From a virus (Duplodnaviria > Heunggongvirae > Uroviricota > Caudoviricetes): 33,148 nucleotides of DNA. This document shows, in pieces, positions 1-22,849 of the stretch (position 1 is the stretch's first letter; the number at the start of each line of letters is the position of its first letter). Both the position numbers and the translations under genes were made by a program. The stretch is from the IMG/VR virus record IMGVR_UViG_2681813271_000008. One strand, written 5' to 3'. Below the pieces are notes generated by a model, which was not told where the DNA came from, made no database searches, and worked only from the letters and a program-made list of their open reading frames with translations.

Positions 1-181
1 CTGGTTGTCTGGAGATTCAGGGGGCCAGTCTACCACCCCTGATGTCAGGTAGGAAAACACCATATGTTTCTGCTCTGTTTTTCCTTAGAAATAGGCATCC
101 TTGCTGGAACAAAGCGAGCAGCTATATTGACTCTATGTTGTGAGTGTGTTGATCCGTTCTGAGTTAATACATTTAAGTTGC

Positions 182-1291
182 TCACTCTGTTTCTGCTATC
201 CATTCCGGGATTTTTGCCTCAAGCTCAAGCTGCGTGGTAAAGCCGCTGTTATCAATGGTGTGCTCGGCTTTTGCAATAATCCAGTCCTGATTATCAATCT
301 CGCTTTTAAATCCTGTTACCGTGCCATGCATTTCGGGGTAGAGTTCTGCACGTCCATGCGCCAGTGTGATGGAGAATGATGCGGCTCCGCGTTGTAGCTG
401 CTGCCACTTTGCCGCCGCTGCACGTCTTGCTGCCTGCTCGTTCTGATAAGTTTTGCGTAACACAAACACGTTGCCTTCCGCACCTTCCATATAGTCGCCT
501 TCCCGGCTGCTGCTTTTCTCCTTTTTTGGTTTTGACGGTTTGCGGCGTTTCACGCTGACTTTTTTCTTTTTCCCGTAATTAAGATCAAGCCAGTAAGCGC
601 GTACCCCCGTATACGCTTCGCGGTCAGCAATGCGGAACTGATGGCGATCGCCGCTGCTGCGTGTGATGGCGAACGAGGGCAACGGCTGGCCCTGTGCGTT
701 CACGCCACCACCGGGCATGATGAATAACAGATTACCGCTTTTTACCGTGGTGATTGCGCCCAGCATTTCCGCCATGCGCGTAAGGAAGGACATGTCGCTT
801 TCTTCGGTCTGGTCGGCGTGGTCGATTTCGATATCCATCAGCATTTCGCTGATTTGCGGTTTCAGACCATACCGATGAGCGATGGCGGATACCACACGCT
901 CAACGGTCACATCATGCCAGGACACCTCACGTTTAACGTTAAATTCAGCCCGAAAATCTGCGCTTCTGGCTGAAACAGTCAGCCTGTCCGGCGGTCCTTC
1001 GTGAGCGATTTCATCAACAATGTAAGTGCCTTTTTCTGTCAGCGGTTCTCCCTTCCAGCCAATGAGAACCGTCAGGCGCGCGCCCCGTGGCGGTAGCTGC
1101 AACTGACCATCCGCATCATCCAGCGTGATGGTGAGCTGGTCCGCCTCAAATCCCCGGTTGTCGGTCAGTGACAGGCTCATCAGGCGCTCTGCCACGCCTG
1201 ACAGCGTTTTACCCTCCGCGAGAATATCAAAATCCGGCATTTTCACGGGGTCTGTGCCCTGACTGAGCAATTGCATGGTGGTGTCGGTCAT
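182..1291 (-). CDS. D: Tail protein D (P2 gpD-like late-control D family)
   Basis: ORF track frame 182..1423; start placed at the internal ATG encoding MTDTT, which is preceded by GGAGGGAG. About 370 aa, lysine-rich internal stretch. Assigned from recalled gpD similarity and position at the end of the tail gene set. Confidence 0.7.
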   Translation of the reverse strand: MTDTTMQLLSQGTDPVKMPDFDILAEGKTLSGVAERLMSLSLTDNRGFEADQLTITLDDADGQLQLPPRGARLTVLIGWKGEPLTEKGTYIVDEIAHEGPPDRLTVSARSADFRAEFNVKREVSWHDVTVERVVSAIAHRYGLKPQISEMLMDIEIDHADQTEESDMSFLTRMAEMLGAITTVKSGNLLFIMPGGGVNAQGQPLPSFAITRSSGDRHQFRIADREAYTGVRAYWLDLNYGKKKKVSVKRRKPSKPKKEKSSSREGDYMEGAEGNVFVLRKTYQNEQAARRAAAAKWQQLQRGAASFSITLAHGRAELYPEMHGTVTGFKSEIDNQDWIIAKAEHTIDNSGFTTQLELEAKIPEWIAETE

Positions 1292-1448
1292 CTGCTCCCT
1301 CCCTGTGTGGCATGGTCGCATGTGCGTGCGGAGGGGGTTACTGCTTTTTGTTGTCGCCGTGGCGGGAGAATGGCGCAGGGGTGAGATTACGCGCGTGGTG
1401 GGTGATGATTGTTGCCGAATCATTTAACGGATACAAGGGGTTGAAGCT

Positions 1449-2633
1449 ATGAGTGAAACTCGTTTTCATGGTGCCCGTGTTACGGAAAATACCGACCTGG
1501 TAACAGCGATTAACGATGTTGATTCCAGCGTTATCGGTATCGTGGCAACGGCGGATGATGCGGACGCGGAGCTGTTCCCGCTGAACAAGCCCACACTGCT
1601 GCCCCGCGTCAATGACGTGCTGGGAAAATGCGGAACAACGGGGACGCTTTATCGTGCGCTTAAGGCCATCGCAGACCAGGTGAGCACAAAGGTGATCGTC
1701 GTTCGCGTGGCTGAACACAAAGAAGAAGACGGAAAAACGCAGGATCAACTGGTTATCGGTGGTTCTGAATCTGACGGCAGCTATACGGGGATGTATGCGC
1801 TGCTTGTTGCAGAGCAGGATGAAAGCATCGGATACCGTCCGCGTATTCTGGCCGCGCCGGAGCTGGACACGGAGGCGGTGACAAAATCCCTGTGCGTGAT
1901 TGCGGGTAAACTGCGCGCGTTTGTGTATGCCTCATGTCATGACTGTAACACGATGGCTGAGGCAATTACCTACCGCCAGAAATTCAACGAACGTGAGGTG
2001 ATGCTCTTATGGCCGGACTTCATCGCCTACAACCCGAAAAGTGGCAAAAACGAAACGTTCCCCGCGCCTGCCTATGCGTGCGGCCTTCGTGCGTACATTG
2101 ACCATGAGCAGGGCTGGCACAAATCGCTGTCCAACGTTCCGGTTAAAAATGTGCTGGGGATGTCCAGGCATGTGTTCTGGTCGTTGCAGGCCGAAGACAG
2201 TGATGCCAACAGCCTCAACAACAAAGAAATCACGACCATTATTCGTCGCAACGGGTTCCGCTTCTGGGGCAACCGCACACCGGAAACGAACGCCTACATC
2301 TTTGAGGTGTATACCCGAACCGCACAGGTGCTGGCTGATTCAATTGCGGAAGCGCAGTTTGAAACCATCGACAGTCCACTGACGCCTGCGAACGTGAAGG
2401 ATGTTATCGGTGCCATCAGGGCAAAACTGGATTCACTGGTTACTGCCGGGAAACTGATTGGGGCGTCGTGCTGGTATGACGTGGTGGATAACGGCACCAC
2501 GAATTTACGTCAGGGGCGCGTGCGTATTCGCTACAAATATACGCCTGTTCCCCCGCTGGAAGACATGGAGCTTTACCAGTCGTTTACTGATGAATTCTTT
2601 GGTCCCGCATTTGCGGTGCTGGGAGGTGCCTGA
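1449..2633 (+). CDS. FI: Contractile tail sheath protein (P2 gpFI-like)
   Basis: 394 aa ORF, AAGGGG RBS upstream; length and position match P2 FI; followed by tube, chaperone and tape-measure genes. Confidence 0.85.
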   Translation: MSETRFHGARVTENTDLVTAINDVDSSVIGIVATADDADAELFPLNKPTLLPRVNDVLGKCGTTGTLYRALKAIADQVSTKVIVVRVAEHKEEDGKTQDQLVIGGSESDGSYTGMYALLVAEQDESIGYRPRILAAPELDTEAVTKSLCVIAGKLRAFVYASCHDCNTMAEAITYRQKFNEREVMLLWPDFIAYNPKSGKNETFPAPAYACGLRAYIDHEQGWHKSLSNVPVKNVLGMSRHVFWSLQAEDSDANSLNNKEITTIIRRNGFRFWGNRTPETNAYIFEVYTRTAQVLADSIAEAQFETIDSPLTPANVKDVIGAIRAKLDSLVTAGKLIGASCWYDVVDNGTTNLRQGRVRIRYKYTPVPPLEDMELYQSFTDEFFGPAFAVLGGA

Positions 2634-3145
2634 TGGCTGTACCAAAACATCTTCGCTTTTTTACGCTGTTTGTGGATGGTGAAAACGAAGTGGGTAAGGT
2701 GACGTCCGTCACTCTGCCTAAGCTGACGCGCAAAACCGACAGCTACCGGGGTGGTGGCATGATGGGAGCGGTAAGTATTGATCTCGGCCTGGATGACTCC
2801 GCGCTTGATGCGAGCTTTGTCATGGGGGGCGCAGTTCGTGAGCTGTTCCTTAAGTATGGCGGCACGATTGACGGTACGCTGCTGCGTTTTGCGGGTGAAT
2901 ACTACACCGACGCTGAAAGCGACCTGTATGAAGTCGAAATGCGCGGACGTGTGACGGAAATTGATATGGGGGAAGCCAAACAGGGCGAAGCCACATCACA
3001 CACTTACGCCATTAAAAACACCTACTACAAGCTGAGTGTTAACGATCGCCCGTTGTGGGAGATTGACCTGCTGAACTTCATTTACCGGAAGGACGGCAGG
3101 GACATTGTGCCCGATCGCATCCGTTCCGCGCTCGGGCTTGGCTGA
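2633..3145 (+). CDS. FII: Tail tube protein (P2 gpFII-like)
   Basis: 170 aa ORF; its ATG overlaps the FI stop (TGATG) and follows GGGAGG; size matches P2 FII. Confidence 0.85.
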   Translation: MAVPKHLRFFTLFVDGENEVGKVTSVTLPKLTRKTDSYRGGGMMGAVSIDLGLDDSALDASFVMGGAVRELFLKYGGTIDGTLLRFAGEYYTDAESDLYEVEMRGRVTEIDMGEAKQGEATSHTYAIKNTYYKLSVNDRPLWEIDLLNFIYRKDGRDIVPDRIRSALGLG

Positions 3146-3199
3146 TAAGTAATATGCAGGCGGCGCAGTGCGTCGCCTCTGACTGAAAGGAGTTTCCTG

Positions 3200-3565
3200 A
3201 TGAAAGAGACGAAAAACATCGATACCGAAAACACGGTCGTTGCTGACACTGTGAAAGAAACCAGTGAGCGTGGCGTAAAACTTACCCAACCAATTGAGCG
3301 AGGCGGCGAAAAAATCACGTATGTGGAGATCACCGGGGCTATTGAGCAGGCTGGATCTCTGCGAGATTTGTCGCTGTCTGATGTGCTGAATTTGAAAGCG
3401 GAATCCATGTTTACGCTGCTGTCACGCGTGACATCACCGCGACTGGATGAAGTGACGATCAAAAAAATGGCATCCCGTGACTTTATTCAGTTATGTGTGG
3501 TTGCCGTAAATTTTTTGAGCGGTGCGGACTCTGGCGAGAAGAACGAACAGGCGACGGAAGCCTGA
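3200..3565 (+). CDS. E: Tail assembly chaperone (P2 gpE-like)
   Basis: 121 aa ORF between tube and tape-measure genes; contains the slippery heptamer used for the E+E' product. Confidence 0.7.
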   Translation: MKETKNIDTENTVVADTVKETSERGVKLTQPIERGGEKITYVEITGAIEQAGSLRDLSLSDVLNLKAESMFTLLSRVTSPRLDEVTIKKMASRDFIQLCVVAVNFLSGADSGEKNEQATEA

Positions 3566-3729
3566 TCACGGTTGTGTGCTTTGAGCACATAGAAGACTTT
3601 GTGGCGGATATTGCCGCCATTTTTAACTGGTCGCCCGCCGAAATCTTCATGATGACGCCCGGCGAAGTGGTTAGCTGGCGTGAGCGGGCGGCACTTCGCA
3701 GCGGGAATGCAGACAATGAAGACTCTTGA
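3200..3729 (+). CDS. Tail assembly chaperone E+E' (predicted -1 programmed frameshift product)
   Basis: Slippery T_TTT_TTG at 3511..3517 sits in the E zero frame (codons TTT TTG); a -1 slip enters the 3493..3729 ORF, which ends just inside the tape-measure start. Analogous to P2 E/E'. Confidence 0.6.
3511..3517 (+). other. Slippery heptamer TTTTTTG for the E/E' -1 frameshift
   Basis: Heptamer read directly; it lies in the overlap between the E frame and the -1 frame ORF. Confidence 0.6.
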
Positions 3730-6523
3730 TATCCGGGTCGCTTTCAGCGCCGTTGACAGGCTGACCCGGCCTGCCGAAAACGCCCGCCGCCTGATGGGGC
3801 AGTTTGGTGACTCCATCCAGCGAACGCAGGGGGCGATCAAAAATCTCGAGCGTCAGGCGCGTTCATTTGAGCGCGCCCGTGACGCTGTCAGTAAAGCGGA
3901 TGCGGGCATCGTGAAAGCACGACGCCAGCTTAACGCCCTTAATCAGTTACAACGCACGGGTACAGTGCTCAGCGAAAAACAACAAAAGCTGATGCAGCAG
4001 TTAAGCACCCGGCTTGAACGCCTGAATGAATCGCGCACACGGGAAATTCAGAAAATGCGGGAACTTGGCGGAGAGCTGAAACGCCACGGCATTTCCCTGA
4101 CAGGCAGCGATAACACCATCCAGCAGGCCATCAGACGCACCGGACAATACAACAACCAGCTTGAACGCGAACGGCGGGCGCTTGCGCGTGTAACGCAGGC
4201 GCGTGAGCGGTATTCACGCGCGCAGGAAACAGCGGGAAAACTGAAAACAGGTGGTGCGCTGGCAACAGGTGCGGCGGCAGCGGGCGGCTATGCTGCCGGG
4301 CGTTTTTTGCAGCCCGCTATCGGGTTCGGGAAAGAGATGTCCCGTGTTCAGGCACTGACGCGAATCGATAAAAACAGCCCGCAGTTTAAGGCGCTGCGTG
4401 AGCAGGCGTTAAAACTTGGCTCTGAAACGCAGTTCACCGCAGGCGATGCCGCCAGTGGACAGGCATTTCTTGCAATGGCTGGTTTCACACCGCAGGCCAT
4501 TCAGGCTGCGCTTCCCGGCGTGCTGAGCATGGCAACGGCTGGCGGTATGGACCTCGGCGAGACGGCGGATATTGGTTCCAATATCCTGACGCAGTTCGGC
4601 CTCTCTGCTGACCAGATGGACCGGGTCGGTGACACACTTACCGCAGCGTTTACCCGTACCAACACTGACCTTCGCGCACTGGGCGAAACCATGAAATATG
4701 CAGGTCCGGTGGCGGGTAAGCTGGGAATATCGCTGGAGCAGGCCGCAGCGATGGCGGGCGTGCTGGCGAAGATGGGTATCAGGGGGAGTGATGCAGGTAC
4801 AGCGTTGCGTAAAAGCCTGGCCAATCTGTCATCACCGCCAAAGGCAGCGGCAGAAGCACTGAAAGAGCTGGGGGTGTCAGTTGCTGACGCCAAAGGCAAA
4901 ATGCGCCCGATGGAGAATGTGCTGGCCGATCTCTATAAAGCCACCCGCAAATACGGGGAGGTTGACCGGGTATCGTTCTTTAAGGACATTGCCGGAGAAG
5001 AGGCTTTCACATCATTTATGGGCCTCGTTGATGCGGCAGGTGACGGCTTCTTAGCCAAACTGAGAAAAGAACTTGAAGGCGCGCGCGGTGAGGCAGAACG
5101 CACGGCAAAGGTTATGGCCAATAACCTTGATGGCAACCTGAAATCACTCGGCAGTGCATGGGAAGGTCTGCGTATTCGCATCAGTGATCTGGTTGACGGT
5201 CCGCTGCGTTCTGTCACGCAGTGGCTCACGCGGGTTGTCTCAAAGGTGACGGCGCTGGCGCAGGCCCACCCGGCACTGACGCGCCAGTTACTGATAGCGG
5301 GAGGCGCACTGCTGGCGACAACAGCAACGGTTGGTTCGTTGTCTCTGGTTATTGGGGTGCTTCACGGGAAGCTGGCTACGTTGCGTCTCGGTTTTTCTCT
5401 CCTGACCGAATCAATGAATGTTGTCAGGGTTCTGCCTGCATTATGGGGAATGGTGACGGGTTCCGTTTCTTTACTTGGTGGCGCTATCGGGGCGCTGTTC
5501 AGTCCGGTTAGTCTTATCGTGGCTGCGCTTGCCGGAGCTGCCGTTCTTATCTGGAAATACTGGGATCCCATCAGGGCATTTTTTGCCGGGGTGTTCAGCG
5601 GGATTATGGAAAGGCTGACCCCGTTGCGCGAAACCTTTGAACGGTTTGGCCCTGTTTTTGATGTCGTGCGCGATGGGATTATTCAGGTCTTTAACTGGTT
5701 TAAATCGCTGCTGTCACCGATGGAGTCCAGCAAGGAAACGCTGGATAAATGTGCCAGTGCTGGCGAGATATTCGGTAACGTTCTTGGCGGTGCGTTACAA
5801 CTTGTTCTGACACCTGCAAAAATGCTACTGGATACGCTGGCGTGGATACTTGAAAAACTTGGCGTCCTTCCGGATGAAGCGGAAAGGGCGCGCAAGAAAA
5901 TCGAAGACGCACAGCGTGCGGCCATTCTTCAGGACAAGGTTGCCTTGCTTCAGGGGGACCTGGCGAAAATCAATCCGCCGAAGCCTGTGGAAAATGGCAA
6001 TGGCACCGGAGGTGATAAACCCAAAGACAACAAACCGCTCACAGACAGCAATACCGGGACGCTACGCAGACTCAGCAAAATTGCTGATAACACAGGTAAG
6101 CTGGTTGATGAGACGAAAAAACGCATTGGCCCCGGCGATATTGTCTTTAAGAACCTGCCCCGCGCACTTGCTGTTCGTGGGGAGTGGCAGGAGCGGAAGA
6201 TTGCGCAGGTCAGTAAGCCTGCCCCCGCAATTAATATCACACCCGTGGTCCCGGCTCCGCTGCCTCCGGCGCTGGTCCCTGTTGTTGCGGCCAGCTCCCG
6301 CCCGGTGGCGGAGGCCATACGCTCTCCAGTGGCATCAGTTCCTGTAACTTCCCGTAACCGGGAGCCTGTTGCCTCCGGATTTGGTGGTGAAATTCATGTT
6401 CATCTGCATAACGTTGTTACGCAGAATCCCCGCGAACTGGCGAAACTGGTCGGTGAAATGGTCAGGGCAGAAATGGAACGGCGCGCCCGTGCCGGGCGTG
6501 GCAGTTTTTACGATAAAGATTGA
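3716..6523 (+). CDS. T: Tail tape measure protein (P2 gpT-like)
   Basis: Long ORF (frame open from 3680), coiled-coil-rich N-terminus and Gly/Ala-rich hydrophobic central segments typical of tape-measure proteins. Start uncertain: ATG at 3707 or 3716, the latter has better GGGA spacing. Confidence 0.85.
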   Translation: MKTLDIRVAFSAVDRLTRPAENARRLMGQFGDSIQRTQGAIKNLERQARSFERARDAVSKADAGIVKARRQLNALNQLQRTGTVLSEKQQKLMQQLSTRLERLNESRTREIQKMRELGGELKRHGISLTGSDNTIQQAIRRTGQYNNQLERERRALARVTQARERYSRAQETAGKLKTGGALATGAAAAGGYAAGRFLQPAIGFGKEMSRVQALTRIDKNSPQFKALREQALKLGSETQFTAGDAASGQAFLAMAGFTPQAIQAALPGVLSMATAGGMDLGETADIGSNILTQFGLSADQMDRVGDTLTAAFTRTNTDLRALGETMKYAGPVAGKLGISLEQAAAMAGVLAKMGIRGSDAGTALRKSLANLSSPPKAAAEALKELGVSVADAKGKMRPMENVLADLYKATRKYGEVDRVSFFKDIAGEEAFTSFMGLVDAAGDGFLAKLRKELEGARGEAERTAKVMANNLDGNLKSLGSAWEGLRIRISDLVDGPLRSVTQWLTRVVSKVTALAQAHPALTRQLLIAGGALLATTATVGSLSLVIGVLHGKLATLRLGFSLLTESMNVVRVLPALWGMVTGSVSLLGGAIGALFSPVSLIVAALAGAAVLIWKYWDPIRAFFAGVFSGIMERLTPLRETFERFGPVFDVVRDGIIQVFNWFKSLLSPMESSKETLDKCASAGEIFGNVLGGALQLVLTPAKMLLDTLAWILEKLGVLPDEAERARKKIEDAQRAAILQDKVALLQGDLAKINPPKPVENGNGTGGDKPKDNKPLTDSNTGTLRRLSKIADNTGKLVDETKKRIGPGDIVFKNLPRALAVRGEWQERKIAQVSKPAPAINITPVVPAPLPPALVPVVAASSRPVAEAIRSPVASVPVTSRNREPVASGFGGEIHVHLHNVVTQNPRELAKLVGEMVRAEMERRARAGRGSFYDKD

Positions 6524-6529
6524 GGAGTC

Positions 6530-7024
6530 ATGGCCATGATGATGATCTACGGCATGTTTGTTTTTGAGCTGCGTACATTGCCGCATCAGCAGTTACAGCA
6601 AAACAAAAGCTGGCGGCATGTGAAAAATGAACGCGTTAACCGTTCGGCAAGCTGGCAGTATATCGGTGCAGGTGATGAGCGCATCGTTCTTTCTGGTGTG
6701 CTTTATCCTGAAATTACAGGTGGCGAAGTGTCGCTGTCGCTGCTGACCACGCAGGCGTATACAGGACGACCCTGGCCTCTGATTGATGGCGTCGGGCAGA
6801 TTTACGGCATGTATGTCCTGACCGAAACGAATACGACCCGCTCCGAGTTTGATCGCTACGGTAAGGCGAAAAAGATAGAATTTTCACTGACTCTTGAACG
6901 CTGTGATGAGGATTTGCGGGAGCGCCTGCAATCCTCATCGTTCAGCGATATGCTGTCCGGCTTCAAAGATAAGGTAACATCATCCCTTAACAGCGCGGCC
7001 AGTTCAGTTAAAGGGTTGTTCTGA
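6530..7024 (+). CDS. U: Tail protein U (P2 gpU-like)
   Basis: 164 aa ORF immediately after the tape measure; N-terminus MAMMMIYGMFVFELRTLP resembles P2 U. Confidence 0.8.
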   Translation: MAMMMIYGMFVFELRTLPHQQLQQNKSWRHVKNERVNRSASWQYIGAGDERIVLSGVLYPEITGGEVSLSLLTTQAYTGRPWPLIDGVGQIYGMYVLTETNTTRSEFDRYGKAKKIEFSLTLERCDEDLRERLQSSSFSDMLSGFKDKVTSSLNSAASSVKGLF

Positions 7025-7036
7025 TTTAACACAAAA

Positions 7037-7070
7037 ACCGCTAATGGTCAGATTAGCGGTTATTTTGTTT
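7037..7070 (+). terminator. Rho-independent terminator after U
   Basis: Stem ACCGCTAAT / ATTAGCGGT with a 6-nt loop, followed by TATTTTGTTT. Confidence 0.6.
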
Positions 7071-7134
7071 CCTGACTCTTCTCTATTGTTCCGATTGATT
7101 CTCCTGCGGGGTGGTAACGATAAATCGTCGATAT

Positions 7135-7454
7135 NNNNNNNNNNNNNNNNNNNNNNNNNNNNNNNNNNNNNNNNNNNNNNNNNNNNNNNNNNNNNNNNNN
7201 NNNNNNNNNNNNNNNNNNNNNNNNNNNNNNNNNNNNNNNNNNNNNNNNNNNNNNNNNNNNNNNNNNNNNNNNNNNNNNNNNNNNNNNNNNNNNNNNNNNN
7301 NNNNNNNNNNNNNNNNNNNNNNNNNNNNNNNNNNNNNNNNNNNNNNNNNNNNNNNNNNNNNNNNNNNNNNNNNNNNNNNNNNNNNNNNNNNNNNNNNNNN
7401 NNNNNNNNNNNNNNNNNNNNNNNNNNNNNNNNNNNNNNNNNNNNNNNNNNNNNN
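7135..7454. other. Assembly gap (320 N) inside the invertase locus
   Basis: Run of N read directly. Confidence 1.
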
Positions 7455-7612
7455 ATTAATTCCTCGCTCCCGTAGTTCCCCGACGAGAGAAATCAGATGT
7501 TTCATGCTTCGCCCGAGGCGATCCAGTTTCCAGACAACCAGCGTGTCACCTTTTTGAAGGCGCTTTAAAGCGCGTTTTAATCCCGGTCGGTCTGTCTTTG
7601 TCCCGCTTAATT
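7455..7612 (-). CDS. Serine DNA invertase (Gin/Cin/Pin family), internal fragment between N-runs
   Basis: Translation [52 protein letters not shown] matches my recollection of Mu Gin residues about 34-85; flanked by N gaps on both sides. Confidence 0.8.
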
Positions 7613-7792
7613 NNNNNNNNNNNACGTGCTGCGGCATAATCCCAATGATTACTCCCTGACAGGGTTCGTAGGCCACTCAATATCAGGTGCAGTTGATGTA
7701 TCAACACGGTTCAGCAACACCCGATACTTTTTCTAGGCTTCCACCACCAGCACGACAAGATGCCGCATACAGTGACCCAGTCAGTCCAGTTT

Positions 7793-7975
7793 TCAGACAA
7801 CCAGTGCGTCACCTTTTTGAAGGCGCTTTAAAGCACGTTTTAATCCAGGTCGGCCTGTCCTTGTTCCGCTTAATTTATCTTCAAATATTTGTTCATATCC
7901 TGCACAAACAAGAGCGTTTCGTTGCAGGTCTGTATTCTGGTCATTTGTTGATACCCTTACATAGCCAATCAGCAC
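7793..7975 (-). CDS. Serine DNA invertase N-terminal fragment (catalytic-serine region), prematurely terminated
   Basis: From a GTG start after [65 protein letters not shown] then a stop; unrelated sequence follows. Confidence 0.8.
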   Translation of the reverse strand: MLIGYVRVSTNDQNTDLQRNALVCAGYEQIFEDKLSGTRTGRPGLKRALKRLQKGDALVV

Positions 7976-8029
7976 GCTGAATCTCCCGTCCAAAAGCGCA
8001 AATCATGCCATGCAGGCCGGAAACGGCCA

Positions 8030-8055
8030 TTATCTAAAACCTCGGTTTACAGGAA
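8030..8055. other. gix-like inversion crossover site (left)
   Basis: TTATCTAAAACCTCGGTTTACAGGAA closely resembles the Mu gix site as I recall it, and is an inverted copy of the site at 11452..11477. Confidence 0.75.
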
Positions 8056-9066
8056 ACGGTAAACAAGGCTGGTAACGCCGTGCAAAAAAATGGCGATACG
8101 TTGTCCGGTGGACTTACTTTTGAAAACGACTCAATCCTTGCCTGGATTCGAAATACTGACTGGGCAAAGATTGGGTTTAAAAATAATTCGGATGCAGACA
8201 CCGATTCCTACATGTGGTTTGAAACAGGCAACAACGGCAATGAATATTTCAAATGGAGACACCGCATCATTGGCACCCGGCCTAAAGACCTGATGAATCT
8301 TAAATGGAATGCTTTGTCTGTTCTTGTTGAAGCCCTTTTCAGCAGTGAAGTGAAAATATCGACAGTCAATGCACTGAGGATATTTAATTCATCTTTTGGT
8401 GCCATTTTTCGTCGTTCTGAAGAATGCCTGCATATCATCCCTACACGAGAGAATGAAGGGGAAAATGGTAATATAGGGCCACTACGCCCCTTTACGCTTA
8501 ATCTCAGAACTGGCCGGATAAGCATGGGGCATGGTCTTGATGTTACAGGGGATATATTTGCAAACCGTTTTGCAATTAACAGTAGTACCGGCATGTGGAT
8601 TCATATGCGTGACCAGAATGTTATTTTGGGACGTAATGCGGTATCCACTGATGGTGCTCAGGCTTTGCTCCGTCAGGACCATGCCGACCGCAAATTTATG
8701 ATTGGCGGTCTGGGAAATAAGCAATTTGGCATCTACATGATTAATAACTCAAGGACAGCCAATGGCACCGATGGTCAGGCGTACATGGATAATAACGGGA
8801 ACTGGCTTTGCGGCTCGCAAGTTATTCCCGGCAACTATGGCAATTTTGATTCCAGATATGTGAAAGATGTTCGACTTGGTTCACAGCAATATTATGGAGT
8901 GAACAACTGGCAAACATGGAATTTTCAGTGCCCGTCAGGCTATGTACTGACGGGGATTAACGTACAGGATACCGGAAAAAACTCTGCCGATAATATTGCA
9001 GGCGTTCATTACAGGCCAGTGCAAAAGTATATAAATGGCACTTGGTATAATGTGGCGAGTATTTAA
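8038..9066 (+). CDS. Alternative tail-fibre C-terminal (variable) cassette, promoterless, in-frame with the crossover site
   Basis: Frame is open from 8038 through the crossover core codons LGL; ORF track calls 8080..9066. Shares [13 protein letters not shown] and INGTWYNV motifs with the C-terminus of H. No independent N-terminal domain. Confidence 0.75.
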
Positions 9067-9488
9067 TATGATGCACTTAAAGAACATAAAAGCAGGTAAT
9101 GCTAAAACAGTGGAGCAGTATGAGTTAACAAAGAAGCACGGAGTCATCTGGCTTTACTCTGAGGACGGAAAAAACTGGTATGAGGAAGTGAAGAACTTTC
9201 AGCCAGACACAATAAAGATTGTTTACGATGCAAATAATATTATTGTCGCCATCACCAAAGATGCCTCCACGCTTAACCCTGAAGGTTATAGCGTCGTTGA
9301 GGTTCCTGATATTACAGCTAATCGTCGTGCTGATGATTCCGGTAAGTGGATGTTTAAGGACGGAGCTGTGGTTAAACGGATTTATACGGCTGACGAACAG
9401 CAACAACAGGCCGAATCACAAAAGGCCGCATTGCTTTCCGAAGCTGAATCAGTCATCCAGCCGCTGGAACGCGCTGTCAGGCTGAATA
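9035..9488 (+). CDS. Tail fibre assembly protein (Tfa / gpG-like), 3' end cut by an N-run
   Basis: About 75% identical to the next Tfa gene and similar to the minus-strand G; overlaps the end of the alternative fibre cassette. Confidence 0.75.
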
Positions 9489-9495
9489 NNNNNNN

Positions 9496-9978
9496 GAACA
9501 ATACCAGCTAACTAAAAAAGCGGGCGTGGTATGGCTCTTTTGCGAAGATGGCAAAAACTGGTATGAGGAACAAAAGAATTTTCAGCCAGACACCATAAAA
9601 ATTGCTTACGATGAGAACAACATCATCGTTGCTGTCAGTAAAGACGTTTCAACTATTAATCCTGAAGGGCTAAGCATAGTTGAAGTTCCTGATATTACGG
9701 CAAATCGTCACGCAGACAATAACGGAAAATGGATGTTTCTGGATGGTAAAGTAGTAAAGAGGGAATATACAGAACAGGAACTGCAACAACAGGCCGAATC
9801 ACAAAAGGCCGCATTGCTTTCCGAAGCTGAATCAGTCATCCAGCCGCTGGAACGCGCTGTCAGGCTGAATATGGCAACAGACGAGGAACGCACACGACTG
9901 GAAGCATGGGAACGCTACAGTGTTCTGGTCAGCCGTGTGGATACGGCAAATCCTGAATGGCCACAAAAGCCTGAATAA
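9496..9978 (+). CDS. Second tail fibre assembly protein (Tfa), 5' end lost in an N-run
   Basis: Frame open from the gap ([15 protein letters not shown]...); the ORF track's GTG at 9526 is internal. Shares an identical stretch of about 88 bp with the 3' end of the previous Tfa. Confidence 0.75.
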
Positions 9979-9983
9979 AAATT

Positions 9984-10003
9984 AAGGCCCGATAGCGGGC
10001 CTT
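9984..10003. terminator. Hairpin between convergent Tfa genes (likely bidirectional terminator)
   Basis: AAGGCCCG ATAG CGGGCCTT perfect 8-bp stem; T-rich run follows on the minus strand. Confidence 0.5.
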
Positions 10004-10006
10004 CTC

Positions 10007-10540
10007 TCATTCTGGTTGTTCGGGAAACGTTACTGGCAGGCTGGAGGTGTCTGTGGATTCAACCTTCTGCGCATAGAGCATCCACTCGGTTAATTTTTGT
10101 TTATTCTCATCGGAAATGATGCCCAGCTGTAGCTGAGAGTCCCACAGCTGGGTTTTATCCCTGACGAGCTGCAGCAGGCTCTGCTTTTCATTTTCCGCTT
10201 GTTGCCTTTGCTCTTCCTCGGTATAAGTTCGCTTTATCACCGCACCATCTTTGAACATCCAGTTGCCCGAAATATCAGCCCGGCGATTTGCTGTAATATC
10301 AGGCAACTCAACGACACTTAAACCTTCTGGATTAATTGCTGATACATCCTTGTCTATAGCAATAATTATTCCCTCAACTGTGTAAGCCAGTTTTATTGTA
10401 TCCTCCTGAAAGTTTTTTAATTCCTCATGCCAATTTTTTCCATCTTCGGACCATAACCAGATAACATCAAAATTCTTTGTTAGCTGGTATTGTTCAACGG
10501 TTTTTGGATTACCTGCGACAATGTTTTTTAAATGCTGCAT
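10007..10540 (-). CDS. G: Tail fibre assembly protein G (P2 gpG-like)
   Basis: 177 aa ORF directly downstream of the tail-fibre gene; homologous to the plus-strand Tfa ORFs. Confidence 0.8.
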
Positions 10541-10542
10541 GA

Positions 10543-10692
10543 TTATACCTGCGATACGTTATACCATGTTCCGTTAATTAACTTTTGTATTGGTCTGAAT
10601 ACTGCCGGATCATCACCATCGACTTCACCGATAATACCAAGCCCCGTGATTACATGGCCTGATTTTTCATACATCACGCCTTTCTTCATGGT
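10543..10692 (-). other. In-frame continuation of tail fibre H beyond an amber codon (49 codons, conserved C-terminus)
   Basis: Same frame as H after the TAG at 10693..10695: [49 protein letters not shown], then TAA 2 nt before the G start. Aligns with the C-terminus of the alternative cassette. Confidence 0.6.
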
Positions 10693-12477
10693 CTAAACAA
10701 CTCGTGTGCCAAGTCTGACATCTCTCACATAGCGGGAATCAAAGTTACCGTAATCCGAGGGATTAACACGTCCCGTAATATTTATGGTTTTATTACTTTG
10801 AATGCTTCCGGAGACAAAGCGCATAACATGGACGTTATTAGCATAAACATCCAGATTACCATCGCCTTTTTGTTTAAAGCCCGTGTCATTATCACCCAAT
10901 ACAATCGAATTACCGCCAAGAGCACTGGATGTTCCGATACCCAGTGCACCATTCAGTTGACCACCAGATAACGGCAGTGCACCAACATCTCCTGCTGAAG
11001 GTTTTCTGGTGGTGTAAAATTCGGACCAGTCGGCTTCAAAACCATAACCATCACGGGCTGAACGATAAAAAATACCGCCATTTTTATAATTAATCCGAAA
11101 CTGAGCTGCAGGACAACTTCCTTCTCCCATATAAAAATGAATAATTAACGTTGATGCACCACTAATAGTTGCGTTATAGGCTCCGCTACTCCAGTTCCAT
11201 CCAACTGCTTTATCATTCGCAACGGTGCTTCCTGTTTTCCCTAAGGCAAACGCACCAACATGACTTGCTTTTAATGTGATATCGGAGGAACCATCAAAAG
11301 CCACATTGCTTATTTTCCTGGCAGTTTTTAATTTTGCAGCTGTAGAAGCATTGCCGGATAGTTCACCAGAAAGGCCACCGCTGAATGTTTGTCGATTAGT
11401 CCAGGTATTCGCTGTACTGAGTAACGGTATTTTCTCCCCGCTTGTGCCGAGTTCTCGTAAACCGAGGTATTCGATAACGGCAGCAACGGTCGATTTCGCA
11501 AGAATATCCCGCCCGACTTTTGTCAGGGTTGCCAGGCTGGCGACATCATTCCCCGTAAAATACGGAAACTTGCCTGCCGCAGTAGTAAGTCCGGCCAGCG
11601 CCGTCAGGGTGGCATCTTTCGGTTGCTTACCCGCAAGCGCGTTAGTCATGGTGGTCGCAAAATTCGGGTCGTTGCCCAGCGCCGCCGCCAGCTCGTTCAG
11701 TGTGTTCAGTGCATCAGGCGAAGAGTCTACAAGTGCGGCAATCGCAGCCATAACGAAAGCCGTGCTTGCGATTTGGGTATTATTCGTTCCCTGTCGCGCA
11801 GTTGGTGTTGTTGGCGTTCCGGTCAGTGCCGGGCTGTTTAATGGGGCTTTCTTGTTCGTTTCATCCATTACTGCCTTAACGGCTTTTGGTGTCGCTGCCA
11901 GCGTTTCAGACGTGCTGTTGGTGGCGTTGCTGAGCTGGACAAGGCCTTTTGCGGTCAGCGAGGCGTCCGGGTGACGTCGTGACTGTTCATGCTCTTTCAG
12001 TTTGTCATCCACGTAATTCACTGTGGCCATCACCATGGTGTTATCCACGGTAAGCGCCACAGTGGCAGTGCTGGATACGGTCAGAATGGTGCGAAATGTT
12101 TGTGCACGTCCGGATCCTTCGGCAACGGTTGGCTTGTAACTTTCGGCAGTATTGCCTACCGCGATCAAATCGCCGTGCTCATCAAACACACCAATTTCCC
12201 GGATCCAGAATCCGCCCGTTTCAGGAGGAATAACCAGCTCCGCAATAATGTGGTTCTGATGTGTTGCGTCCAGGGTGACGCGATTAACGGTATGTCGCCA
12301 CACCTCATGCACAAGACGGGTCTGCTTACTGTCTGGCGTGGGTAAAGTACCGCCGCCGTCACCCACGGCCATATGTGTCAGGCGGACAGGTTTCCCATCT
12401 GGCGCGGTTGCCTGCGCTAATTTTTTTGCACCCGTATCGGTGATAATGGTTTTAAATTTTCGTGTTGTGGTACTCAT
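10693..12477 (-). CDS. H: Tail fibre protein H (P2 gpH-like), interrupted by an in-frame amber codon
   Basis: 594 aa ORF. Constant N-terminal part runs from 12477 to the crossover site near 11452..11477 (EYLGL); variable part follows. Stop TAG at 10693..10695 lies inside a conserved C-terminal region. Confidence 0.85.
   Translation of the reverse strand: MSTTTRKFKTIITDTGAKKLAQATAPDGKPVRLTHMAVGDGGGTLPTPDSKQTRLVHEVWRHTVNRVTLDATHQNHIIAELVIPPETGGFWIREIGVFDEHGDLIAVGNTAESYKPTVAEGSGRAQTFRTILTVSSTATVALTVDNTMVMATVNYVDDKLKEHEQSRRHPDASLTAKGLVQLSNATNSTSETLAATPKAVKAVMDETNKKAPLNSPALTGTPTTPTARQGTNNTQIASTAFVMAAIAALVDSSPDALNTLNELAAALGNDPNFATTMTNALAGKQPKDATLTALAGLTTAAGKFPYFTGNDVASLATLTKVGRDILAKSTVAAVIEYLGLRELGTSGEKIPLLSTANTWTNRQTFSGGLSGELSGNASTAAKLKTARKISNVAFDGSSDITLKASHVGAFALGKTGSTVANDKAVGWNWSSGAYNATISGASTLIIHFYMGEGSCPAAQFRINYKNGGIFYRSARDGYGFEADWSEFYTTRKPSAGDVGALPLSGGQLNGALGIGTSSALGGNSIVLGDNDTGFKQKGDGNLDVYANNVHVMRFVSGSIQSNKTINITGRVNPSDYGNFDSRYVRDVRLGTRVV
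11452..11477. other. gix-like inversion crossover site (right, inside H)
   Basis: Reverse complement TTATCGAATACCTCGGTTTACGAGAA matches the 8030..8055 site at 22 of 26 positions; the core CTC GGT TTA encodes LGL in the H frame and in the alternative cassette frame. Confidence 0.75.
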
Positions 12478-12479
12478 GC

Positions 12480-13010
12480 TTAATCGTCCGGATAAATGGT
12501 AATGACTTCACCGTCGTAAGTTGCTGCTGCCGCGAAAATATCTCCCTGAATCTCCTGAATGATATTCAGCCCTGTCATGTGGCGGCTGACCGGGCGGGCA
12601 TCAGCAATCAACCGCTCCATTTCCAGATACATTTCCTCCGTCACGCCACTGTCCAGCGTGCCAACATCAATCTTGAATGTTCCGGGTTCGCCGTTGAACT
12701 CCCACCACTCAGACACGCGAATGAGGTATCCCAGCGGCTCAATGGCCCGTCGCAGGGCGCTGATGGTTCCTTTGTGTCGGTGTATCAGCCATGCATCACG
12801 AATCACCTGTCGCTTTGTCTCTTCCGGCCAGTTGCGATCCCAGCGGTCAACGGAAAACGCCCAGGCGAGATAAGGCAGCAGATGCACCGGGCAGGTGTCC
12901 GGCGACCACAGCGTGTTGAGGTCTGCCGGAATGTCTGTAATGCGTGTTCCGACGGCTTCGGCACAACGCATGAAATTGCTGGCTGATGGTGGTAACAGTG
13001 AATTACTCAT
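12480..13010 (-). CDS. I: Baseplate/tail-fibre attachment protein I (P2 gpI-like)
   Basis: Start at ATG 13008..13010 (MSNSLLPP) preceded by GGTGG, 2 nt after the J stop; 176 aa, the same length as P2 I. Confidence 0.85.
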   Translation of the reverse strand: MSNSLLPPSASNFMRCAEAVGTRITDIPADLNTLWSPDTCPVHLLPYLAWAFSVDRWDRNWPEETKRQVIRDAWLIHRHKGTISALRRAIEPLGYLIRVSEWWEFNGEPGTFKIDVGTLDSGVTEEMYLEMERLIADARPVSRHMTGLNIIQEIQGDIFAAAATYDGEVITIYPDD

Positions 13011-13899
13011 TACGCCCACCTTCGCTGATGGTGAATGACTCACAGCGCGCCGCCTGTATGTCGCTGATGGCCATATTCTGTGTGGGTTCGATTATCTCCA
13101 CGCGTTGCACACCGTGCACATGCAGTGCGGCAGCAATGGCGGACAACGCCACGTCCTGACCGATAAGCCCCTGCTCAGCCAGCCACTTCCTGAACGACGA
13201 TTCAGCCGCAGCCAGAATAGGTTCGGATTCCGGACCGGGGTAAAAGTACAGTTTTGCATTCAGCCGCCATGTCACGATTCTGGCACTCTGTACGGTCAGG
13301 CGGTCGGCCACCGGGCGGGTATCCTCTGCATTCAGAACGGCGCGAACGGTATTAAGCAACGCCTCCGTTGCTGTGCCGTCGCCCTCAGTGGACAGGATGG
13401 AAACCGTCACATTTGCCGGAGACGGACTGATGGCCCGCGCATCGCGCACCAGACCGCTGGCGCTGCGGGCAAAATACTCGTATGCGCCTGACGGGCCTGC
13501 AACACTCAGGCCGTCATACGCCCGCTGCGCCCGCAGTCTCAGCGAGGTGTCGTTCTCCATCACCACGTCGGTGGTATCCGTTGCCGGAGTGATAACCAGG
13601 CGCTTTGTGTTCATATTGCCCGCGAGGTTGTCCAGGTCTGTTCCGGCGCTGTGGCTCAACATGCAGGCGCGTGCGGCCTCATTGACCCGCTGGCGTAACA
13701 GCATTTCACGAAACGACATGGTTTGAGCGATAACGTTCAGGGGTTCCGATTCCAGTTCCAGTGCGGCGGAGACGACTTCACGCTGTTCGGCGGGATAAGC
13801 TGCAATCATCATGGCCTTTGTGTCAGCCAGAATTGCCTCAAAGTCAGGCTCCGCGATGATGGCGGGTTCCGGTAACTGGGAAAGGTCAACGGCAGGCAT
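13003..13899 (-). CDS. J: Baseplate assembly protein J (P2 gpJ-like)
   Basis: 298 aa ORF in the V-W-J-I order. Confidence 0.85.
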   Translation of the reverse strand: MPAVDLSQLPEPAIIAEPDFEAILADTKAMMIAAYPAEQREVVSAALELESEPLNVIAQTMSFREMLLRQRVNEAARACMLSHSAGTDLDNLAGNMNTKRLVITPATDTTDVVMENDTSLRLRAQRAYDGLSVAGPSGAYEYFARSASGLVRDARAISPSPANVTVSILSTEGDGTATEALLNTVRAVLNAEDTRPVADRLTVQSARIVTWRLNAKLYFYPGPESEPILAAAESSFRKWLAEQGLIGQDVALSAIAAALHVHGVQRVEIIEPTQNMAISDIQAARCESFTISEGGRNE

Positions 13900-13902
13900 G
13901 AT

Positions 13903-14253
13903 TTACTCCCTCAGCGTGATGGTTAATTCAACATTCTGCATGGTCTGCATGACAGTGCCCGACAGCGTCACCCCGGCGTGGCCTCCTGCCTTCCAGACAA
14001 CGTCGATGGCGTTCAGGGCAATGCGTGGTTCCCATCGTGTCAGTGCAATCACGGTAGCACTCATGCATTGCAGACGCGTGGTGTTATTCATGGGTTCGTC
14101 AATCAAATCAGGCACAAGGCTGCCATATTCCCGTCGCATAACCCGGCTTGCCAGCGGGGTGGTCAGGATGTCCCTGACTGACTGTTTCAGGTGCGCCATA
14201 TCGTTCAGGTTTCCCGTCCCGTCCGGGTTCATTCCTGTGTAGCGGGTTGTCAC
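13903..14253 (-). CDS. W: Baseplate assembly protein W (P2 gpW-like)
   Basis: 116 aa ORF between V and J. Confidence 0.85.
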   Translation of the reverse strand: MTTRYTGMNPDGTGNLNDMAHLKQSVRDILTTPLASRVMRREYGSLVPDLIDEPMNNTTRLQCMSATVIALTRWEPRIALNAIDVVWKAGGHAGVTLSGTVMQTMQNVELTITLRE

Positions 14254-18019: not shown

Positions 18020-18093
18020 NNNNNNNNNNNNNNNNNNNNNNNNNNNNNNNNNNNNNNNNNNNNNNNNNNNNNNNNNNNNNNNNNNNNNNNNNN
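18020..18093. other. Assembly gap (74 N) between L and M
   Basis: Run of N read directly. Confidence 1.
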
Positions 18094-21031: not shown

Positions 21032-22849
21032 ATGATTCAGGACGCTTTTGTGCGCCAGCGTGCGCGGCAACTTTACTGGCAGGGTTATCCGCCCGCAGAA
21101 ATATCACGTCTGATGGGAATAAACCCGAACACGATTTATGCGTGGAAAAAACGCGACCAGTGGGATGAAACGCCACCCGTGCAGCGTGTCACGCAGTCCA
21201 TCGATGCGCGCCTCATCCAGCTTACTGAAAAACAGAATAAAACAGGTGGTGACTTTAAGGAAATAGANNNNNNNNNNNNNNNNNNNNNNNNNNNNNNNNN
21301 NNNNNNNNNNNNNNNNNNNNNNNNNNNNNNNNNNNNNNNNNNNNNNNNNNNNNNNNNNNNNNNNNNNNNNNNNNNNNNNNNNNNNNNNNNNNNNNNNNNN
21401 NNNNNNNNNNNNNNNNNNNNNNNNNNNNNNNNNNNNNNNNNNNNNNNNNNNNNNNNNNNNNNNNNNNNNNNNNNNNNNNNNNNNNNNNNNNNNNNNNNNN
21501 NNNNNNNNNNNNNNNNNNNNNNNNNNNNNNNNNNNNNNNNNNNNNNNNNNNNNNNNNNNNNNNNNNNNNNNNNNNNNNNNNNNNNNNNNNNNNNNNNNNN
21601 NNNNNNNNNNNNNNNNNNNNNNNNNNNNNNNNNNNNNNNNNNNNNNNNNNNNNNNNNNNNNNNNNNNNNNNNNNNNNNNNNNNNNNNNNNNNNNNNNNNN
21701 NNNNNNNNNNNNNNNNNNNNCGATGTGGAGCTGAAAGGGGGCGATAAAATCATCCTCTCCAACGGCGCAGAGATGCATTTTCTCGGCACTTCTGCTGCGA
21801 CGGCGCAATCTTACACGGGCAATTTTTATTTTGATGAATTTTTCTGGGTCAGTCGCTTTGCTGAACTGCGCAAGGTGGCTGGCGCTATGGCAACCCTCAG
21901 CGGACTGCGGCGCACCTGCTTCTCCACGCCATCCACCGAAACGCACGAGGCATACGCCTACTGGAACGGCGACCGCTGGAACGAGAAAAAGGCCGCGCAT
22001 AAACGCCAGCGTTTTTCTGTGGACTGGAAAACGCTGCATAACGGGCTTATCTGCCCTGACCGGACGTGGCGGCAAATTGTCACGCTGGAAGATGTGGTTA
22101 ATCACGGCTGGAAACACACCGATATTGATGAAATTCGTGATGAAAACACCGAAGACGAGTTCCGCAATCTCTATATGTGTGAGTTTGTCCGCGAAGGGGA
22201 ATCGGCATTTAACCTGAATATCCTGATTGGCTGCGGTGTTGACGGATACGACGACTGGAAAGACTGGAAACCCTTTGCCCCCCGCCCGATGGGGAATCGT
22301 CCGGTATGGATTGGGTATGACGCAAACGGCAGCAGTGGTAACGGCGACAGCGGCGCTGTGTCCGTGGTGGTTCCTCCGGCTGTTCCTGGTGGTCGTTTCA
22401 GAACGGTGGAGACGCGACGCGTTCAGGGGCTGGAATTTGAAGAGCAGGCCAGAGTTATTGAAGAGTTCACGTATCGCTACAACGTGGAACACATCGGCAT
22501 TGATGCGACGGGAGGGCACGGGGATGCCGTCTATCAGATAGTGAAACGGTTTTTTCCCGCCGCCATCCCTTACACCTTCACGCTGTCATCAAAACGGTCG
22601 CTGGTACTGAAAATGCTGCAAATAATGCGTGCCGGGCGGTGGGAATACGATCGCGCCGAACGCGAGCTGGTTGCGGCCTTTAACGCCGTGCGTAAGGTGA
22701 AAACACCGGGCGGTTTTATCACTTACGAAACGGACCGCGCGAGGGGGATCAGCCACGGCGACCTTGCGTGGGCAACCATGCTTGCTGTCATTAACGAACC
22801 GATTGGCGGCGAAGGAGAAAACGAGCGTTTCACGGTTATGGAGTTCTGA
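21032..22849 (+). CDS. P: Terminase large (ATPase) subunit P (P2 gpP-like), interrupted by a 453-N gap
   Basis: 605-codon frame open across the N-run; N-terminal and C-terminal parts present; divergent from O as in P2. Confidence 0.8.
   Translation: MIQDAFVRQRARQLYWQGYPPAEISRLMGINPNTIYAWKKRDQWDETPPVQRVTQSIDARLIQLTEKQNKTGGDFKEIXXXXXXXXXXXXXXXXXXXXXXXXXXXXXXXXXXXXXXXXXXXXXXXXXXXXXXXXXXXXXXXXXXXXXXXXXXXXXXXXXXXXXXXXXXXXXXXXXXXXXXXXXXXXXXXXXXXXXXXXXXXXXXXXXXXXXXXXXXXXXXXXXXXXXXXXDVELKGGDKIILSNGAEMHFLGTSAATAQSYTGNFYFDEFFWVSRFAELRKVAGAMATLSGLRRTCFSTPSTETHEAYAYWNGDRWNEKKAAHKRQRFSVDWKTLHNGLICPDRTWRQIVTLEDVVNHGWKHTDIDEIRDENTEDEFRNLYMCEFVREGESAFNLNILIGCGVDGYDDWKDWKPFAPRPMGNRPVWIGYDANGSSGNGDSGAVSVVVPPAVPGGRFRTVETRRVQGLEFEEQARVIEEFTYRYNVEHIGIDATGGHGDAVYQIVKRFFPAAIPYTFTLSSKRSLVLKMLQIMRAGRWEYDRAERELVAAFNAVRKVKTPGGFITYETDRARGISHGDLAWATMLAVINEPIGGEGENERFTVMEF
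21268..21720. other. Assembly gap (453 N) inside terminase P
   Basis: Run of N read directly. Confidence 1.

Follow-up and report, generated by a model that had tools for sequence, protein, structure and literature searches.

The window analysed here, 33,148 nt in length, is the entire draft scaffold CXCM01000025.1 of GCA_001256555.1 and represents a P88-like prophage (Xuanwuvirus, P2-family), with 95.7% identity to phage P88 covering 88% of 9.7 kb of late genes. Pfam matches to gpD, sheath, tube, gpE, tape measure, gpU, gpI, gpJ, gpW, gpV, capsid and terminases place it in this group. The genes for gpD, sheath, tube, gpE, tape measure and gpU lie on one strand, and the invertase, the invertible fibre segment and the fibre, gpI, gpJ and gpW genes converge on them; P88 itself and many finished E. 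coli prophages possess an intact 195-aa invertase within the same gene order. Six N-runs interrupt the window, and those of 320 and 11 N bracket the invertase region. Additional gaps fall inside late genes (18020-18093, 21268-21720 and 27013-27026), with the large terminase gene among those affected; low coverage or a second related prophage may account for them.

Within this region the invertase is represented by separate pieces (Table 1). A preliminary description had read the piece at 7793..7975 (fragment B) as approximately the first 60 residues followed by a stop, and that at 7455..7612 (fragment A) as residues 34 to 85 or thereabouts, with some 80 bp present in both copies with few mismatches and N-runs separating them. 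Translation and alignment bear this out, fragment A covering residues 35-86 and the stretch common to both fragments amounting to 91 nt (7522-7612 versus 7785-7875) with eight mismatches (91.2% identity), which extends at lower identity to 137 nt (79%). That description had overlooked the end of the invertase, 24 codons with the stop, which is located beyond the 320-N run. Both fragments match the serine-invertase catalytic domain (Pfam Resolvase, PF00239), with E = 2.6e-17 for fragment A and E = 2.9e-15 for fragment B. The motif YxRVST, which holds the nucleophilic serine, is found in fragment B (GYVRVSTNDQ, including Ser9), and the P88-type gene is assembled over residues 35-86 and its last 24 residues. 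As regards the second domain of such enzymes, HTH_7, the window contains the last 24 invertase residues alone, the rest falling in the 320-N gap, and the stub is devoid of it.

Table 1. Features of the invertase and fibre region, in coordinates of the window.
Feature	Position	Strand	Remarks
P88-type sequence	1-7612, 7998-9488, 11686 onward		by diagnostic positions
Lambdoid-type sequence	7624-7896, 9496-11608		by diagnostic positions
Invertase 3' end	7060..7134	-	residues 172-195 (ISTIYRYHPAGESIGTIEKSQETK); TAA stop at 7060-7062
Scaffold gap, 320 N	7135..7454		stands for 255 nt of invertase (residues 87-171)
Fragment A, 158-nt contig	7455..7612	-	residues 35-86 of P88-type invertase
Probable false join, 11 N	7613..7623		P88-type contig against contig starting in lambdoid-remnant locus
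tfa pseudogene 3' end and downstream sequence	7624..7746	-	...KKYRVLLNRVDTSTAPDIEWPTNPVRE*; from lambdoid remnant
Decayed invertase continuation from codon 61	7747..7792	-	*KLD*LGHCMRHLVV; in-frame stops replace W61 and R65
Fragment B, invertase stub	7793..7975	-	60 codons (7975->7796) and TGA 7793-7795; VLIGYVRVSTNDQ...GDALVV
Exact repeat of both loci, 101 nt	7897..7997		switch from lambdoid-type to P88-type inside
gix-like crossover site (right inverted repeat)	8026..8055		P88-type; pair I3 with 11452-11481
Silent fibre cassette, P88-type	8080..9488	+	Sv' 328 aa (8080-9066); tfa' (9035-9488), ended by next gap
Second probable false join, 7 N	9489..9495		two different tfa' paralogues; left side P88-type, right side lambdoid-type
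Lambdoid invertible segment carried into scaffold	9496..11608		ends in 127 nt of lambdoid-type constant region
tfa'	9496-9978	+	lambdoid segment
tfa, 177 aa	10007-10540	-	lambdoid segment
48-aa ORF	10543-10689	-	lambdoid segment
Variable fibre end	10693-11451	-	lambdoid segment
Exact repeat of both loci, 77 nt	11609..11685		switch back to P88-type inside

To the left of the 11-N run the window follows P88-like prophages throughout. Fragment A is 100% identical to the intact invertase genes of L012 (a gap-free draft contig) and of L006 and L008 (loci in complete genomes), and positions 7000-7134 are 100% identical to L012 (6967-7101) and to L006. Over the longer range, 34-7134 together with 7455-7612 are 100% identical to L012, and 31-7134 together with 7455-7612 match L006 and L008 at 99.99% and 100% identity, respectively. 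The invertase of L012 (195 aa) comprises Resolvase and HTH_7 domains (PF02796, E = 1.6e-13), and the intact 195-aa relative matches the Mu Gin structures 4m6f and 3uj3 (E = 1e-100, residues 1-182). The earlier suggestion that the invertase is disrupted is not upheld: every assembled base of the P88-type gene is 100% identical to the intact gene, and the 320-N gap is of about the right size for the 255 nt that separate its flanks in the gap-free sequences of L012 and L003. P88-type alleles of codons 1-34 are absent from the window, position 7896 being a stub allele; the relatives nonetheless point to an intact P88-type invertase in the source genome. P88-type sequence resumes to the right of the stub, with 7998-9488 identical to L012 save at position 9196 and 8034-9488 99.93% identical to L006. 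The contig 7624-9488 was also considered as lambdoid throughout, a possibility that was discarded on account of its P88-type alleles from 7998 onward, which match L012.

Fragment B and its flank have a different origin. The stretch 7624-8084 matches lambda-like prophage remnants at 98.5-100% identity, and 7624-7997 is 100% identical to L025 (CP026802.1; 0 mismatches in 374 nt) and to the sister draft L015. Fragment B carries lambdoid-type alleles up to 7896, including Y27 in place of C27, and differs from the P88-type gene by nine mismatches at 7793-7896; its protein equals the 60-aa Resolvase ORF of L019, a locus of the complete genome CP032523.1. The roughly 170 bp next to it, previously described as unrelated DNA, do amount to 169 nt (7624-7792), but in the frame of fragment B they comprise decayed invertase codons and, after these, the C-terminus of a tail-fibre-assembly protein; this translation also disposes of the candidate reading of 7624-7792 as a second, diverged recombinase. 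Ordinary tfa genes match 7624-7746 in thousands (most) of E. coli genomes, and the remnant itself is annotated as 'tail fiber assembly protein, missing N-terminus' in JJ1886 and H10407. The junction between stub and tfa remnant recurs in 427 of the 5426 complete E. coli genomes, NCTC86 matching it at 100% identity. The order at the lambdoid locus is partial recombinase, tfa remnant, a 45-aa ORF and a class I SAM methyltransferase gene, with the segment, the stf fibre gene, lom and J on the other flank of the stub; in complete genomes found through the exact 177-aa tfa protein of the window, this locus adjoins trpA. Judging by these matches, fragment B is a real, conserved 60-codon pseudogene of lambdoid prophage remnants.

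The first 11 nt of the lambdoid-type contig, 7624-7634, coincide with the second arm of a perfect 11-bp hairpin, which was recognised with the help of L001, the JJ1886 locus (5981-6000). This hairpin, CCGCAGCACGT-N11-ACGTGCTGCGG, is situated downstream of the methyltransferase gene and is the likely reason for the contig break at 7624. Additionally, the proteins that best match the lambdoid cassette bear the name Shigella sonnei, and several of the finished relatives are rich in IS elements; the source could thus be an S. sonnei strain rather than E. coli.

Diagnostic positions along the scaffold assign it alternately to the P88-type and the lambdoid-type locus, with four switches, of which two coincide with N-runs (7613-7623 and 9489-9495) and two lie inside exact repeats of both loci. 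The 101-nt repeat is flanked by the last lambdoid-diagnostic site at 7896 and the first P88-diagnostic sites at 7998, 8019, 8025 and 8082, and the 77-nt repeat by a last lambdoid-diagnostic site at 11608 and a first P88-diagnostic site at 11686. Between the second N-run and the end of the 77-nt repeat (9496-11685), the window is identical to L025 (0 mismatches in 2190 nt), the equivalent of which in CP026802.1 follows an 875-aa phage_tail_N fibre gene; positions 11482-11608 differ from P88-type sequence by seven mismatches. The two invertase fragments therefore do not constitute one broken gene, since the pieces carry diagnostic alleles of two different loci. Both loci are found, separate and uninterrupted, in finished genomes (L006, L019 and L025), and the complete genome CP032523.1 contains the two of them, L006 at 3.71-3.73 Mb and L019 at 4.26-4.28 Mb, on the same strand and approximately 550 kb apart. 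The other earlier proposal, that the assembler had confused the gene with a paralogue, holds in that alleles of two loci are mixed and both loci are in CP032523.1, but the paralogue is the stub and not a full invertase.

The repeat-internal switches are the signature of an assembly graph that collapses short exact repeats. They are not products of the invertase, because neither coincides with a crossover site: the first lies 33-158 nt from the site at 8030-8055 and the second 128-204 nt from that at 11452-11481. Invertase-mediated recombination between prophages was for this reason dismissed as the origin of the hybrid joins. Furthermore, the two available drafts disagree exactly at the repeats, as L015 attaches the stub to an Sv' of 280 aa, like the natural lambdoid locus L025, and the window has the P88-type 328-aa Sv' in that place.

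The N-runs themselves were compared with gap-free relatives. Besides the run of 320 N, two others overstate the sequence they stand for, 453 N replacing 387 nt and 74 N replacing 34 nt, these being the lengths with which L015 fills 21268-21720 and 18020-18093, respectively. It might be supposed that the N-runs are masks over real sequence and that the layout is genuine, for which the presence of the runs is the sole argument; this is highly improbable, as their lengths are 40-66 nt off the real sequence in 100%-identical relatives and the sequences beside the short runs overlap as paralogues. On this comparison the N-runs are lengths estimated by the scaffolder and not masks over known sequence, because they differ from the real sequence of the gap-free relatives. 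At 7613-7623 the flanks do not abut, overlapping instead as paralogues (91 nt, 91%), and the diagnostic alleles change locus across the run. Similarly, the tfa' paralogues on either side of 9489-9495 overlap by about 385 nt at approximately 71% identity, which is also apparent as a direct repeat in the window (D1, 9113-9412 versus 9496-9795, 71%). The two partial tfa' genes at 9035-9978 stand in tandem across this 7-N run and have an identical C-terminal motif, with ~35 codons missing from the end of the first and 15 from the start of the second; like the fragmented invertase, this tandem is a scaffold artefact.

Switches at N-runs or inside exact repeats, contig ends that overlap as paralogues and two intact source loci in finished genomes are the features of a repeat-induced mis-join, and the fragmented invertase is thus most probably (with a probability of about 0.88) an assembly artefact, in which short-read assembly and scaffolding mixed pieces of two paralogous loci. 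The first locus would be the fibre switch of the P88-like prophage, in which the tape measure and gpU genes are followed by an opposite-strand 195-aa serine invertase of the Gin/Pin type and, beyond it, by a gix-like site, a silent fibre cassette, tfa genes and the fibre gene. The second would be the corresponding part of a lambda-like prophage remnant adjacent to trp, in which the invertase is reduced by decay to a 60-codon stub joined to a tfa remnant, with a methyltransferase gene beyond. Identical stretches of about 77-101 nt or longer are common to both loci, so that contigs would have ended, or crossed over, inside them; the scaffolder would then have placed the overlapping paralogous ends one after another, separated by short N-runs. 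Comparison of the sequences demonstrates to which locus each base belongs, where the switches fall and that the two loci exist separately in a complete genome; we infer that both loci are also present in the source genome, the structure of which was judged from its relatives. Taken literally, the scaffold would represent an invertase interrupted after codon 34 by a 250-nt insertion, composed of the tfa remnant and a partial duplicate of the 5' end. The order of the scaffold pieces is all that speaks for such an event, and it is scarcely credible, given that the inserted piece equals the lambdoid stub locus base for base, with nine diagnostic differences from the P88 gene, that the junction is an N-run, that a tandem layout cannot arise from a single crossover and that the same artefact pattern is seen again at 9489-9495.

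The fibre gene was affected as well. Its 594-aa ORF (10693-12477) is probably chimeric, P88-type in its N-terminal portion and lambdoid-type in its C-terminal one, because the switch of locus falls inside the repeat at 11609-11685. Records of this exact 594-aa product are limited to this scaffold and one sister draft, and the combined arrangement was sought in complete E. coli genomes and found in none. This ORF bears on a further explanation, namely real homologous recombination between a P88-like prophage and the lambdoid remnant within the fibre or invertase sequences common to both, by which the P88 late genes of this lineage would have been joined to the lambdoid segment, the stub and the methyltransferase gene. 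The fibre switch by the late genes would then have a truncated invertase only, the intact one residing elsewhere beside gpU. Consistent with this, L015, a contig free of gaps, connects P88-type late genes with the 594-aa fibre ORF and then with the lambdoid segment and the stub, and extends for 312 nt into the methyltransferase gene, and the switch at 11609-11685 is common to both drafts. However, with the loci on the same strand ~550 kb apart, as in CP032523.1, such recombination needs a 550-kb duplication or an excised circle, and the arrangement is absent from all complete E. coli genomes; moreover, the 7897-7997 switch of the window is missing from L015, and the scaffold links P88 tail genes and invertase pieces to the same region. 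Recombination is accordingly regarded as improbable, if less so than an interrupted gene or masked sequence. The join at 11609-11685 also speaks against an assembly artefact: a random mis-join would not obviously recur in two drafts. The two strains are near-identical, and it is suspected that both drafts came from the same pipeline.

A smaller irregularity in this part of the window concerns 10543-10695 (also 9852-9998 in L025), where the TGA of the fibre gene overlaps the ATG of the 48-aa ORF (ATGA, then six A). The 48-aa ORF is similar to the very C-terminal end of other fibre cassettes, and may be either a frameshifted fibre end or a small gene of its own. The split between fibre gene and 48-aa ORF is real, because complete genomes have it too.

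The invertible segment is bounded by a pair of sites at 8026-8055 and 11452-11481, which are 83% complementary over 30 nt, the second arm lying inside the fibre gene. This corresponds to the inverted site pair of ~26 bp typical of serine DNA invertases, with the qualification that the arms in the window come from two different loci; the sequence TTATCTAAAACCTCGGTTTACAGGAA of the first site occurs once in the window. By homology, the invertase is expected to bind two such inverted sites of 26-30 bp and to be activated by Fis at an enhancer ~100 bp from one of them, and the resulting flip of the segment would swap the C-terminal receptor-binding end of the fibre along with its matching chaperone.

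Truncation of the invertase had been thought to freeze the fibre segment in one orientation, a notion contradicted by complete genomes for the lambdoid segment beside the stub. JJ1886 and U14A, both ST131, have the same remnant at the same chromosomal site with 99.3-100% identity over the locus, and yet the 3.1-kb segment next to the stub has opposite orientations in the two, through a clean inversion (L001 6401-9519 versus L017 5001-8119) with 27-bp overlaps at each end. The inversion end points in complete genomes fall on equivalent 27-bp repeats. Likewise, the segments of L019 (CP032523.1) and L025 (CP026802.1) are in opposite orientations, and in an evenly spaced sample of 60 matches the JJ1886-type orientation was observed in 11 and the flipped one in 17, at 99.4-100% identity. 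A truncated invertase beside a fibre segment does not, as far as these comparisons indicate, necessarily mean a frozen segment, and an invertase supplied from elsewhere is called for, because stub-flanked segments occur in both orientations.

Precedents for such action in trans are available. PinQ and PinR invert the e14 segment (PMC12529663), and the same work cites cross-action of Fin with Hin and of PinE with Mu, Fin acting on the H segment of Salmonella. In the Hin system, a 65-bp enhancer is located ~100 bp from a hix site (PMC3798978); purely by position, a Fis-dependent enhancer may be placed around 7865-7930, within the part that is kept in the stub. The first 60 codons of the stub are open and 95-100% conserved, and the sequence just past them is decayed. 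It is conceivable, although we advance it tentatively and consider it somewhat less likely than the contrary, that the 60-codon stub is a retained cis-acting module (a crossover site with a positional Fis enhancer) and not inert debris, its segment being invertible by the invertase of another prophage, here the P88-like one.

Relatives of the P88-like locus display variation of their own. L006 (11184-12443) and L008 have an IS3-type IS, encoding a 385-aa transposase, within the gix-like site at the equivalent of window position 8040/8041, with a 3-bp AAC duplication and an intact invertase adjoining; this insertion would block inversion of the P88-like segment in both. L006 contains a second IS3-type copy between its two tfa genes. 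Additionally, the P88-like prophages L007, L010, L011 and L013 (about 11190-14200), which have an identical gpU and a 199-aa invertase, possess four to six short Collar-domain ORFs whose order and orientation vary, and this multi-cassette region resembles a shufflon-like fibre system with multiple inversions.

Annotated as it stands, the scaffold would give rise to three wrong calls, namely a disrupted invertase, a locked fibre switch and a new 594-aa hybrid fibre. P2-like and lambda-like prophages have invertible fibre modules in common, and short-read drafts consequently yield interleaved scaffolds of this kind, which can be recognised by short N-runs between overlapping paralogous ends. That segments beside a truncated invertase stub still flip is a modest by-product of the analysis.

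The intact relative of fragment A, a 195-aa protein with Resolvase and HTH_7 domains, is akin to Gin of Mu, Pin of e14, Cin of P1 and Hin, and the gin genes of Mu, D108 and SfMu match the fragments at 93-95% nucleotide identity. The arrangement is also Gin-like, with a gix-like site just upstream of the invertase and its inverted partner in the fibre gene; unlike Mu Gin, the host element is a P2-family prophage and the gene is here seen in pieces. The module is that of P88, comprising tape measure, gpU, opposite-strand invertase, silent cassette, two tfa genes, fibre gene and gpI, and differs from it in that the segment cassettes vary between relatives and part of the segment of the scaffold appears to come from another locus. 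Fragment B and its flank correspond at 98.5-100% to the lambdoid 'recombinase family protein' pseudogene beside stf/tfa (P423_RS27525 in JJ1886 and ETEC_RS31140 in H10407); the sequence is alike, and it is seemingly only the placement in a P88-like scaffold that is wrong. Finally, as with PinQ/PinR on the e14 P segment and Fin of Fels-2 on the H segment, the segments beside the stub would need an invertase from outside.
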